A stretch of DNA of 52,113 nt from a virus (Duplodnaviria > Heunggongvirae > Uroviricota > Caudoviricetes). The translations under genes and the position numbers were made by a program. Below the pieces are notes generated by a model. It saw nothing but the letters and a program-made list of their open reading frames with translations. It searched no databases and was not told where the DNA came from. Shown here in pieces: positions 1,553-17,038 of this stretch. The stretch lies in IMG/VR virus record IMGVR_UViG_2541047719_000006, one strand, 5' to 3'. Numbering within the stretch: position 1 is the first letter of the stretch; the number at the start of each line of letters is the position of its first letter.

Positions 1553-1741
1553 TCACGACGACTGAAGTTTCTCGCAATTAAAATTTATCAGTTTTACTTT
1601 CTGCTCTCTGGAAACGCCTGCTTCTTTTTTACCTGAGAGCATTTTTTCGCATTCTGATTTGGTTAATTTTGTTTTTGAGTACCTTGTCCAGTTAGTAGGA
1701 GTGCCACCTTCCTTTTCAATAGTGGCGGTAATTTTATACAT
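1553..1741 (-). CDS. ydaC: YdaC-like small prophage protein
   Basis: ORF 1553..1813; start at 1741 preferred because of GGAGGTG RBS 5 nt upstream; overlaps ralR stop by 8 nt; alternative starts 1753 and 1813. Confidence 0.5.
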   Translation of the reverse strand: MYKITATIEKEGGTPTNWTRYSKTKLTKSECEKMLSGKKEAGVSREQKVKLINFNCEKLQSS

Positions 1742-12620: not shown

Positions 12621-13307
12621 ATGACCCCAATAAAAATATTTATGACTATTGCTGATTTCAAACGGCCTAAATTGGAGCTCCCAAACGGGGCAAACAAACT
12701 ACTACTGCACTCTTGCTGTGCTCCATGTTCCGGTGAAGTGATGGAGGCGCTTCAGGCCTCGGGAATCGACTATACCATCTTTTTCTACAACCCGAACATT
12801 CATCCTCAGAAAGAGTATTTAATTCGTAAGGATGAGAATATTCGCTTTGCTGAACAACACGGCGTGCCATTTATTGATGCTGATTACGACACAGACAACT
12901 GGTTTGAACGTGCCAAAGGAATGGAATGGGAGCCCGAGAGGGGGATCCGTTGTACCATGTGTTTTGACATGCGTTTTGAGCGGACAGCGCTGTACGCTGC
13001 TGAAAATGGTTTCAGTGTGATCAGCAGTTCACTGGGCATTTCACGCTGGAAAAATATGCAGCAGGTTAACGACTGTGGGCGGCGAGCCGTCGCGCATTAT
13101 CCGGGCATGGTGTACTGGGATTATAACTGGCGCAAGCAGGGCGGCTCGTCCCGCATGATTGAAATCAGCAAGCGCGAAAAATTCTATCAGCAGGAATATT
13201 GTGGCTGTGTGTATTCTCTGCGCGATACCAATCTACACCGCAAATCTCAGGGACGCCCTCTTATCAAAATTGGTCAACTCCACTACGGTAAAGAAGAGAA
13301 GGAGTGA
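12621..13307 (+). CDS. DUF208/QueH-like epoxyqueuosine reductase family protein
   Basis: Motifs [42 protein letters not shown] match remembered QueH conserved Cys pattern; alternative start 12642; TTGACA hexamer at 12496. Confidence 0.55.
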
Positions 13308-13544
13308 TTTTATGGAGCACCTTTCTTATTGATTTCATATTGGCGAGGTAGCGGGAGTTAAGTAAAATTGCTGCGGGTGCTTGAGGCTATCTGCCTCAGG
13401 CATGAACACCAAAAGGCAGATAGAGAAAAGCCCCAGTTAACATTACGCGTCCTGCAAGACGCTTAACATTAATCTGAGGCTCAATCTATGCTGAACACAT
13501 GTAGGTTAGCCTCTTACGTGCCGAAAGGCAAGGAGAAGCAGGCT

Positions 13545-13700
13545 ATGAAGCAGCAAAAGGCGATGTTAATCGCCCTGATCGTCATCTGTTTAACCGTCAT
13601 AGTGACGGCACTGGTAACGAGGAAAGACCTCTGCGAGGTACGAATCCGAACCGGGCAGACGGAGGTCGCTGTCTTCACAGCTTACGAACCTGAGGAGTAA
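13545..13700 (+). CDS. hokD: Hok/Gef family type I toxin (HokD/RelF-like)
   Basis: 51 aa MKQQKAMLIALIVICLTVIVTALVTRKDLCEVRIRTGQTEVAVFTAYEPEE; AAGGAG RBS; in-frame upstream extension to 13488 in ORF track. Confidence 0.8.
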   Translation: MKQQKAMLIALIVICLTVIVTALVTRKDLCEVRIRTGQTEVAVFTAYEPEE

Positions 13701-13768
13701 GAGACCGGGCGGGAGAGTAATCTCCCGCCACCTCTGATATGTCAGGCATCCTCAACGCACCCGCACTT

Positions 13769-13790
13769 AACCCGCTTCGGCGGGTTTTTT
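13769..13790 (+). terminator. Rho-independent terminator after hok
   Basis: AACCCGC-ttcg-GCGGG followed by TTTTTT; identical copy at 14609..14630. Confidence 0.6.
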
Positions 13791-13908
13791 CACGTACTGT
13801 GGTTGTGAATACGATTGGTATTAGGCTATGCTAACAACATTAGCCTGACTAATTTTGTATTGACTTAATTTTTGTTAAAGAACAGGACGGAGAAGTAAGG
13901 GTACACCA

Positions 13909-14088
13909 ATGAGCTACGCACTAAAAAAACACCCGCGATTGACTATTCCCCCTCGCGATAAAAGCGTTGTGGCAGCTCCGCGCCCGGCTATCGATGAAAA
14001 TTGCACTCATCGTGAGCAGGTGAAAAATGCTTTCGATTTCGGTTTTTCTCGTTACGAGAAGGCAATGGAAGATCTTTCAAAAGTGTAA
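13909..14088 (+). CDS. Small protein, candidate antitoxin partner of Doc
   Basis: 59-aa ORF read by hand (MSYALKKHPRLTIPPRDKSVVAAPRPAIDENCTHREQVKNAFDFGFSRYEKAMEDLSKV); ends 18 nt before Doc start; not in ORF track. Confidence 0.35.
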   Translation: MSYALKKHPRLTIPPRDKSVVAAPRPAIDENCTHREQVKNAFDFGFSRYEKAMEDLSKV

Positions 14089-14106: not shown

Positions 14107-14592
14107 ATGGCTGAGATTGTTGAAGGAGTGCACTACCTTTCGGTTGATGATCTTACTGAAATTAATCGCCTTTTAATTGAGCTTCAAACACCAGATGAAC
14201 CTGTTGGTGTGCTGAGTGTTGATAATTTAAGTTCTTCTCAGTCTCGTCCCAGTATGGTTCGATGGTATGAGCAAACCAACGACATGTTTGTACTGGCATC
14301 GGTATTGATTGAAAGTCTGATTCAGAATCATCCATTTGCCAATGCAAACAAGCGCACAGCAATGATGGCTGGTGCGGTTTTTTTATTGTTAAATGGATAC
14401 GAATTAACCGCACCAGGCGATGAAGTTGTGGAGATGGCTGAGGGGCTGGCCTGTAAAATTTATACACGAGAAGAGCTTGAAAATTGGTTGTGTTATTGGT
14501 CTCGTGCGTATGACAGTCGGGAATTATGTAAAACAGGCGCAACTATTGTTTTGTATGAAACTATCAAGCTTAAAATAGAACAGCAAAACTAA
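14107..14592 (+). CDS. Doc (death-on-curing) family toxin, Fic fold
   Basis: Motif HPFANANKRTA matches Doc signature H-x-F-x-(D/N)-A-N-K-R (P1 Doc HIFNDANKRTA); ORF track start 14098 is TTG, ATG at 14107. Confidence 0.7.
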   Translation: MAEIVEGVHYLSVDDLTEINRLLIELQTPDEPVGVLSVDNLSSSQSRPSMVRWYEQTNDMFVLASVLIESLIQNHPFANANKRTAMMAGAVFLLLNGYELTAPGDEVVEMAEGLACKIYTREELENWLCYWSRAYDSRELCKTGATIVLYETIKLKIEQQN

Positions 14593-14608
14593 AGATGCTT
14601 CTAATGAA

Positions 14609-14630
14609 AACCCGCTTCGGCGGGTTTTTT
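14609..14630 (+). terminator. Rho-independent terminator after doc
   Basis: AACCCGC-ttcg-GCGGG followed by TTTTTT, identical to 13769..13790. Confidence 0.6.
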
Positions 14631-14815
14631 GTTGCGTGCTGAATATGCAGGGTGAAAAATAACCATATATTTGATTATATACACAGCCAAAAATAAAAGT
14701 CATTGTACCTGCACATTAAACAATCAAATATACGACGTGAAATAAATATTTTTCAGATTAATATTTTTGTCTCTATGTGGATATAACCTTTTGTACTTAT
14801 AAACCTGGAGGCATC

Positions 14816-16884: not shown

Positions 16885-16960
<76 letters not shown>

Positions 16961-16963
16961 TAT

Positions 16964-17038
<75 letters not shown>

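Follow-up and report, generated by a model that had tools for sequence, protein, structure and literature searches.

Evidence for an apparently complete hok/mok/sok cassette of the hokD/hokW subtype in a Rac-site lambdoid prophage

The region 13340-13790 of the window, i.e., of the whole 52,113-nt stretch of viral DNA analyzed here, very probably represents a type I toxin-antitoxin cassette, hok/mok/sok of the hokD/hokW subtype, which is complete and apparently intact as judged from its sequence. It holds a hok promoter, a tac element at the mRNA 5′ end, mok, hok, fbi and a terminator, with Sok on the opposite strand (Table 1). A first-pass annotation of this DNA had described a “solitary” Hok-type gene, which is wrong or at least incomplete, given that a Sok gene lies opposite 13426-13496 and a full cassette surrounds hok. 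The same annotation had asked whether a Sok-like antisense RNA is encoded, and the answer appears to be yes, based on a promoter identical to that of the validated sokW and on a terminator hairpin. The cassette is an ordinary, fully equipped one of the textbook kind, which is already known and of low interest as such: it holds nothing new, because it is ~95% identical to the experimentally characterized hokW-sokW of Shiga-toxin phages. Its discovery value is also small in that it occurs in most E. coli genomes and that the toxin gene is already called hokD in RefSeq. The transcript ends, the 3′ processing, the half-life of Sok and the toxicity of hok expressed from its native leader are presumed here from these relatives.

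Table 1. Predicted elements of the cassette and of its transcripts (positions in the window)
Feature	Position	Strand	Basis or remark
hok (mok-hok) promoter	13340..13368	+	-35 TTGGCG 13340-45, 17-nt spacer, -10 TAAAAT 13363-68
Full-length hok mRNA, ~416 nt	13375..13790	+	tac 5′ end to intrinsic terminator; ends placed by homology
tac (translational activator element) GGGTGCTTGAGG	13375..13386	+	mRNA 5′ end; pairs with fbi
5′ stem CTATCTGCCT / AGGCAGATAG	13387..13423	+	MFE; inverted repeat I8
Sok antisense RNA, ~71 nt	13426..13496	-	mapping of sokW/sokC annotation, fold, 40 homologues
Sok-target hairpin of hok mRNA	13429..13481	+	MFE; direct repeat D4
mok Shine-Dalgarno GAGG	13476..13479	+	read from sequence; 8 nt before mok ATG
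mok reading frame, 70 codons	13488..13700	+	ORF list; in frame with hok
Sok promoter	13503..13531	-	-35 TTGCCT 13531→13526, 17-nt spacer, -10 TAACCT 13508→13503; +1 G13496
ucb-like box CCTCTTAC	13510..13517	+	complementary to dcb GTAAGAG and to hok SD region
hok Shine-Dalgarno AAGGAG	13530..13535	+	read from sequence; sequestered in MFE
hok CDS, 51 aa, identical to HokD/RelF	13545..13700	+	Pfam, PHROG, RefSeq annotation hokD
Small hairpin CAG-C-UUACGAA-C-CUG	13678..13692	+	Tyr47 TAC 13683-85 in loop, TadA motif UACG
dcb-like box GTAAGAG	13697..13703	+	overlaps stop codon; complementary to 13511-13517; conserved in 40 loci
Stable 3′-UTR hairpin GGCGGGAGA / TCTCCCGCC	13708..13729	+	inverted repeat I6, 9/9; MFE; conserved with changes
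fbi (fold-back inhibition element) CCTCAACGCACCC	13750..13762	+	pairs with tac
Intrinsic terminator AACCCGC-TTCG-GCGGGTT + TTTT	13769..13790	+	read from sequence; present in MFE

Prophage setting and toxin gene

Positions 1-28800 of the window are 99.997% identical to a prophage located next to ttcA in E. coli K56-43-un. Because this twin adjoins ttcA and carries intR, xisR, ralR, recT, recE, kilR, sieB, ydaSTUV and trkG, the window prophage is assigned to the lambdoid prophages of the Rac site. The earlier description of a Rac-like prophage without relBE thereby holds: the gene preceding hok encodes QueH (220.6 bits), and there is no relBE upstream. The arrangement in which hokD directly follows relE and has no leader of its own is therefore not the one found in the window. 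A literature search on prophage-encoded QueH yielded nothing relevant. Replication genes and QueH lie on one side of hok, and DUF1367, DUF1364 and Q-like genes on the other, all in the same orientation. Equipped with its own promoter and terminator, the cassette can be regarded with high confidence as an autonomous “moron” that a Rac-site lambdoid prophage carries in its nin-like region. In the RefSeq annotation of the K56-43-un prophage, the hokD CDS is the only part of the cassette that is listed; mok and Sok are absent, as they are from the RefSeq entries of such prophages in general. Of 5,426 complete E. coli genomes searched by megablast with positions 13308-13800, 4,726 gave a match. At least 80% of the query is covered at a single place in 3,883 genomes, which means that the leader is included.

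The 51-aa product of the ORF at 13545-13700, MKQQKAMLIALIVICLTVIVTALVTRKDLCEVRIRTGQTEVAVFTAYEPEE, is assigned to the Hok/Gef-family toxin peptides, which are ~50 aa long and have an N-terminal hydrophobic helix. It matches HOK_GEF (Pfam PF01848) with 81.6 bits (cutoff 22) and PHROG 251 with 2.8e-33, and an identical record exists in RefSeq under the name HokD (WP_000813254.1). The proposed HokD identity of the toxin is thus borne out, all 51 residues being the same in K-12 HokD. The NCBIfam Hok subfamily model scores 48.5 bits, below its cutoff of 73; in the presence of clear Pfam and PHROG matches, NCBIfam Hok models that stay below their cutoffs are uninformative. The identical HokD peptide is listed among previously characterized toxic controls (bioRxiv 10.1101/2025.08.07.668861). 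Also correct was the earlier reading of an AAGGAG ribosome binding site and of an ORF open in frame back to 13488, with small coordinate corrections overall; AAGGAG lies 9 nt before the hok ATG and overlaps the -35 element of the Sok promoter by 2 nt.

The hok mRNA and the mok reading frame

For comparative analysis, 53 related loci were collected with one genome per species, and 38 of them were aligned together with the window, 933W and a Rac phage; the 40 loci evaluated come from at least six genera, including Escherichia, Kluyvera, Photorhabdus and Erwinia. In distant loci, homology with the window extends from ~13361-13375 to ~13762, and in other hok loci it begins at ~13355-13363. Since it spans just this stretch, the conserved unit is the mRNA from tac to fbi. 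The hok promoter agrees with the consensus at 9 of 12 positions in a consensus scan and is situated 7 nt ahead of the conserved 5′ end of the mRNA. The intrinsic terminator at the other end was missed by a generic scan, because its A-T pairs run into the T-tract.

A conserved structured leader of the hok mRNA is indicated by the Rfam model RF01794 (“sok”), which matches 13375-13550 over its full length (model positions 1-157) and scores 119.6 bits (gathering score 59). Despite its name, this model lies on the hok-sense strand: the K-12 match is on the strand of hokC, opposite the annotated sokC, and the same holds for 933W. For this reason, the match proves the hok leader and by itself no antisense gene, and it was rejected as direct proof of the latter; automated calls that rely on the model can misplace the Sok strand. 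Weak Rfam matches to isrK, CsrC, rsmX, istR and ceN48 were discarded as well, all of them being below the gathering scores and concerning terminator hairpins or the hok leader only.

The minimum free energy (MFE) fold of 13375-13790 has -170 to -174 kcal/mol (z = -6.7), with the Shine-Dalgarno (SD) sequences of both mok and hok buried. In this model, tac and fbi form 12 bp with one bulge, a long-range 5′-3′ pairing that would lock the full-length mRNA. Compensatory changes in this helix are seen in Photorhabdus and Kluyvera loci, and its pair 4 is U-A in 28 and C-G in 8 of the 40 loci. The adjacent 5′ stem shows compensation at the alignment column pair 15/48 (A-U 25, U-A 5, G-C 1). An alternative local hairpin at 13378-13402, TGCTTGAGGC / GCCTCAGGCA, is likely a metastable co-transcriptional hairpin. 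The ucb- and dcb-like boxes (13511-17 / 13697-703) could form 7 bp, which are 100% paired across the 40 loci; a covariation signal was not found for them in this set, the boxes being nearly invariant. In the full-length MFE fold, the ucb-like box pairs with the hok SD and not with dcb, and the MFE fold of the 3′-truncated mRNA contained the 5′ local hairpin and no textbook tac-ucb structure. When the tac-fbi helix, the 5′ stem, the ucb/dcb boxes and the small hairpin at Tyr47 are taken together, 90.8% of the cells in the 40 loci are paired, vs. 41-50% when the partners are slid. Double changes occupy 50 cells, compared to 19.6 in shuffles, and none of 500 shuffles reached the observed number.

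The small hairpin at Tyr47 has, at the level of sequence and structure, the properties of a TadA substrate: a UACG motif, the base to be edited in the loop of a small hairpin, and a predicted Tyr→Cys outcome. A13684 is therefore a predicted A-to-I editing site. TACGAA is invariant in the 40 loci while the closing stem covaries (C-G 24 / U-A 15 and G-C 24 / A-U 14). In K-12, hokC, hokD and hokE are edited by TadA at the corresponding codon, hokD to ~6% (PMC5630033, PMC12214031). Editing of Tyr47 from UAC to UIC, which is read as Cys, probably modulates the toxicity of HokD.

The first-pass annotation had noted an upstream in-frame extension of hok that recalls the mok/hok arrangement, and this is supported by the homologues: an overlapping mok starts upstream of hok within the Sok target, and 39 of 40 loci have its ATG 56-58 nt ahead of that of hok. 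The mok SD, which is located inside the Sok-complementary region and pairs with CCCC at 13431-34 in the MFE fold, is invariant across all 40. The frame of mok relative to hok varies: 26 loci have frame 0, 9 have +1 and 4 have +2, and in these last 4 mok ends 19 codons later, at the start of hok. As the ATG is conserved while the frame is not, it is the start position of mok that is kept and not the peptide, which is as expected for a reading frame that would act by translational coupling. An alternative is that the 70-aa product of 13488-13700 is itself a functional, N-terminally extended Hok rather than the by-product of a regulatory frame. Where mok is in frame, as here and in 26 of the 40 homologues, its translation yields Hok with a 19-aa extension, and K-12 MokC is annotated in this way. 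However, the out-of-frame mok ATG in 13 of 40 homologues implies that the extension peptide is not conserved, and a strong SD precedes the inner ATG, which makes a functional extended Hok highly improbable.

The Sok antisense RNA and its terminator hairpin

On the strand opposite hok, all parts of a cis-encoded Sok gene can be recognized: a putative promoter of its own, a 5′ tail, a terminator hairpin, and a position over the SD and start codon of mok. A 16-nt single-stranded 5′ tail (13496→13481) would cover the mok start codon, followed by the long hairpin (13480→13430) and UUUU. The annotated 5′ ends of sokW in 933W and of sokC in K-12 both map to 13496, and their annotated 3′ ends to 13426 and 13420, respectively. 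Folding of the minus-strand RNA 13503→13421 gives -32.7 kcal/mol (z = -4.8) with precisely this layout of 5′ tail, one long hairpin and UUUU. In 40 of 40 homologues, the fold is a hairpin that has a GCCUC...GGGGC base and a U-tract behind it.

The Sok promoter region and the Sok 5′ end are base-for-base identical to those of sokW in phage 933W. With only 3 of 6 consensus matches in its -10 element, this promoter stayed below the threshold of a generic promoter scan. The generic promoter and terminator scan was rejected as evidence of absence, and homology to the validated sokW settles the Sok promoter. The sokW RNA of Sp5 was detected by northern blot, and HokW is toxic (PMC8621323). Moreover, substitutions in the -10 element of Sp5 sokW abolish the protection by the antitoxin, which is restored by sokW in trans (PMC8621323, Fig. 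1E, primers YO-421/422).

The long hairpin also accounts for the repeats that had been pointed out upstream of hok. Within the 52 kb of the window, the 9-mer TTAACATTA has exactly two copies (13437-13445, 13463-13471), which flank a stem, GCGTC/GACGC (13447-51, 13458-62). The earlier claim of two TTAACATTA copies around a short stem hence stands. As a separate “repeat elements” feature it does not, since the Sok terminator hairpin has the two copies as its facing arms, and so has, on the other strand, the Sok-target hairpin in the hok mRNA, which holds both copies plus the inner stem and sequesters the mok SD at its base. The arms read as a direct repeat because the 9-mer is a quasi-palindrome: only the two bases in the center distinguish its reverse complement, TAATGTTAA, from TTAACATTA. 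In Sok, the arms pair as U-A, U-A, A-U, A-U, U-G, G-U, U-A, U-A, A-U. Both wobble pairs in the center are confined to the Sok strand and become A·C and C·A mismatches on the hok strand, so that the hairpin is stronger in Sok than in the hok mRNA.

The copy number of the 9-mer is unremarkable by itself, as at least two copies occurred in 14 of 100 shuffles; the reality and meaning of the repeat instead rest on its conservation in 15 homologous loci and on its pairing. A perfect 9-bp direct repeat flanking a 17-bp segment could also be the footprint of an insertion or duplication, i.e., a 9-bp target duplication around a 17-bp insert that has no function of its own, and loci of the hokC, Photorhabdus and Erwinia types, which lack 18-20 nt at exactly this place, would fit such an event. 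Yet the arrangement is kept in 15 loci from Escherichia, Shigella, Kluyvera and other Enterobacteriaceae, the copies pair on the Sok strand, and the insert supplies an apical stem of 5-6 bp. Across the 15 loci, 91.9% of the long hairpin is paired, vs. 36-46% in slid controls, with compensatory changes at two pairs and the two G·U pairs invariant. A functionless footprint is thus very unlikely. An insertion may nonetheless, with low confidence, have been the origin of the TTAACATTA repeats, the outcome being a maintained, longer hairpin; where the 18-20-nt apical segment is missing, as in the hokC-, Photorhabdus-, Erwinia- and R1-type loci, the hairpin is short.

Known relatives, proposed mechanism and possible roles

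The closest characterized system is hokW-mokW-sokW of the Stx2 phages 933W and Sakai prophage 5 (Plunkett annotation AF125520; Takada et al. 2021, PMC8621323), with 95% nucleotide identity over 13355-13772. Like the window, the prophage-borne 933W locus has a 70-codon mok in frame and a long Sok of 71 nt with TTAACATTA arms, and mokW, hokW and sokW are all three annotated there (AF125520). Four of 51 residues, located at the C-terminus (TAYEPEE vs. VDYESEK), distinguish the toxin from HokW, and two substitutions (13453, 13487) distinguish Sok from sokW; the terminator deviates beyond 13772. The loci also differ in their position in the phage genome: the cassette of the window is found in the nin-like region between QueH and the Doc module, co-oriented with the early rightward genes, whereas hokW of 933W lies near the right end.

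K-12 hokD (relF), which belongs to the relBE-hokD operon of the Qin prophage, encodes the identical 51-aa protein with the same TadA codon. At the DNA level, however, K-12 is homologous only over 13531-13789 (96.9% identity, fbi and terminator included) and has nothing of the cassette upstream of the hok SD, where the 3′ end of relE takes the place of the hok promoter, tac, mok and the Sok gene with its promoter. From sequence comparison, the arrangement without relBE is the common, ancestral-looking one, and relBE-hokD of K-12 a truncated exception or derivative. The window thus displays an intact “hokD” locus, while the K-12 reference copy is truncated and devoid of tac, mok and sok.

More distant relatives share the same plan. 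The comparison with hok/sok (parB) of plasmid R1 was made on an IncFII plasmid encoding a Hok that is identical to the 52-aa sequence of R1 Hok. In the R1/IncF locus, the elements follow each other as in the window: tac, there GGCGCTTGAGG, a Sok hairpin with the base GCCCC...GAGGC, the mok ATG, a Sok promoter, TTGCGC-17-TATCCT, in the homologous position, AAGGAG, TACGAA and fbi. Unlike the window, R1-type loci have a short Sok hairpin and an extra insertion in the 5′ leader after the first hairpin, and R1 hok/sok is plasmid-borne with proven post-segregational killing. HokW is reported to be 44% identical to R1 Hok (PMC8621323). The chromosomal hokC/mokC/sokC (gef) of E. coli is 76% identical across the whole cassette and likewise has mok in frame (mokC, 69 codons); it differs from the window by its short Sok of 59 nt, which lacks the 18-19-nt apical segment, by a Sok -35 element (TTGACC) in a different register, and, in the K-12 copy, by the flanking IS186.

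The mechanism proposed here is carried over from R1 hok/sok and hokW-sokW, for which it is established, with local support from sequence, structure and covariation. The scheme of tac, fbi, ucb, dcb and 3′ processing reportedly goes back, in part, to work of the Gerdes laboratory. A weak promoter would give rise to a stable ~416-nt hok mRNA, which tac-fbi pairing would shield from both translation and Sok binding. Slow trimming from the 3′ end would remove fbi, and the refolding mRNA would expose the ribosome binding site of mok along with the Sok target. Provided that the DNA is there and being transcribed, the 71-nt cis-antisense Sok could pair over the mok SD and start codon, blocking translation of mok and hence the coupled translation of hok, and RNase III would cut the duplex. 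Once the supply of Sok stops, be it by loss of the element, by a block of transcription or, as for sokW, by prophage induction, HokD would be made, insert into the inner membrane and depolarize or lyse the cell. Toxicity of Hok, its neutralization by Sok and its activation upon Sok decay are, for 13340-13790, presumed by transfer from the 95%-identical hokW-sokW.

In the native prophage, hokW-sokW is active: sokW is lost upon induction with mitomycin C in a RecA-dependent manner, HokW is then produced, and deletion of hokW-sokW halves phage release (PMC8621323). The candidate roles for the cassette are lysis assistance on induction, prophage stabilization and defense against other phages. A prophage-linked role, i.e., lysis assistance on induction and/or prophage stabilization, seems most likely, although the induction role may not transfer, as the cassette occupies a different position than hokW in 933W.

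Alternatively, the cassette could be a silent relic that looks intact and neither kills nor stabilizes anything, either because hok is not translated from its native mRNA or because Sok is always in excess. The K-12 chromosomal loci hokA, hokB and hokC showed no post-segregational killing in earlier tests, as far as these are cited in bioRxiv 10.1101/2025.08.07.668861. Likewise, the copy of APEC O1, the closest relative checked (99.4% identical), has a nonsense change (CAA→TAA) at hok codon 4, from which it follows that such copies can decay, and hok is frameshifted in one Shigella copy (L051). Against a relic stand the intactness of every element in the window, the open hok frame in 39 of 40 homologues, the maintenance of RNA helices by compensatory changes and the activity of the near-identical hokW-sokW in its native prophage. 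A silent relic is accordingly judged to be distinctly unlikely.

Defense of the abortive infection type could be the main function if shut-off of host transcription by an infecting phage depleted Sok and freed HokD, in which case the cassette would serve neither to maintain the prophage nor to assist lysis. When carried on a high-copy plasmid, R1 hok/sok lowered the plating efficiency and plaque size of T4, according to the citation of this work in PMC8621323, and the prophage has further toxin modules nearby, RalR/RalA and a Doc-family toxin. On the other hand, hok genes are not enriched beside defense systems (bioRxiv 10.1101/2025.08.07.668861), and the only test of a prophage-borne copy revealed a positive effect on the release of the phage itself (PMC8621323). 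Defense as the main function is therefore considered unlikely compared to a prophage-linked role.

The long Sok of the hokD/hokW subfamily and the nin-like position, co-oriented with early rightward transcription, might together point to a specialized switch timed by induction, in which read-through from the de-repressed early promoter would run into the Sok promoter and free HokD as a lysis accessory. The extra GC-rich apical stem and the two invariant G·U pairs could then tune the half-life of Sok or its recognition. Such a switch, put forward as a doubtful possibility here, would turn the classical addiction logic of plasmids into a variant specific to prophages. With ralR/ralA, hok/sok and a Doc-family pair, at least three toxin modules are stacked in this prophage, which is relevant to studies of prophage stability and induction.

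Predicted toxin-antitoxin modules neighbouring hok/sok

Judging from sequence matches, the prophage carries a second type I toxin-antitoxin system beside hok/sok, because RalA, the antitoxin sRNA of RalR, is matched by its Rfam model and ralR is annotated in the virtually identical prophage of E. coli K56-43-un (see the table below). Downstream, hok is directly followed by a 59-aa ORF, which has no Pfam match, and then by a Doc/Fic-family toxin gene; together they are probably a type II toxin-antitoxin module whose antitoxin is not of the Phd type. A 22-nt terminator, AACCCGCTTCGGCGGGTTTTTT, closes the hok cassette (13769-13790, plus strand) and recurs at the end of the Doc module (14607-14631, plus strand); this shared element could indicate a boundary between modules or a site of recombination. 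Weak Rfam matches to rsmX and istR at 14541-14631 represent nothing but the terminator of the Doc module.

Features of the prophage outside the hok cassette
Feature	Window position	Strand	Match or remark
RalA (RalR antitoxin sRNA)	1557-1735	+	Rfam, 215 bits (gathering score 170)
Epoxyqueuosine reductase QueH gene	12621-13307 (RefSeq start 12642)	+	PF02677, 220.6 bits
59-aa ORF	13909-14088	+	PHROG 2208
Doc/Fic-family toxin gene	14107-14592	+	TIGR01550, 120.6 bits; PHROG 577 'Doc-like toxin'
tRNA-Thr(TGT)	16885-16960	+	prophage-borne
tRNA-Gly(TCC)	16964-17038	+	prophage-borne

Sequence variation and pairing at the hok locus

The counterpart of 13308-13800 in E. coli APEC O1 (L002, 4001-4494) is 99.4% identical. 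Its hok codon 4 is TAA instead of CAA, and its Sok hairpin has an additional T in the apical loop; in RefSeq this copy is annotated as a shortened 'Hok/Gef family protein' of 45 aa. Compared at the level of identity and annotation, six more records match this copy. Besides the motif at Tyr47, hok contains a further TACGAA, which includes the UACG motif of TadA A-to-I editing, at 13639-13644 (Val32-Arg33, GTA CGA). Phage 933W has a G at exactly the editable position, 13640, and editing at this site would be synonymous.

In the promoter region, 5' of the hok +1, GAGGTAGCGGGAG (13345-13357) is complementary at 12 of 13 positions to 13722-13734, the 3' arm region of the 3'-UTR hairpin, and is absent from 933W in a comparison with that phage. 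The complementarity may be due to chance, and pairing would be relevant only to transcripts reading through from QueH.

Strand of the Rfam sok model

RF01794, named 'sok antitoxin', models the sense strand of hok mRNA and not the antisense RNA, as seen at the K-12 (L003, 902-1054) and 933W (L005, 1521-1695) loci. Annotation pipelines that adopt the strand of this model uncritically would therefore put Sok on the wrong strand.

QueH and tRNA genes

The QueH gene lies within the prophage and adjoins hok on its upstream side. E. coli itself uses QueG for the same step, and QueH is therefore an unexpected passenger on a phage; a literature search for prophage-borne QueH found nothing. Both prophage tRNA genes are located upstream of the lysis genes.
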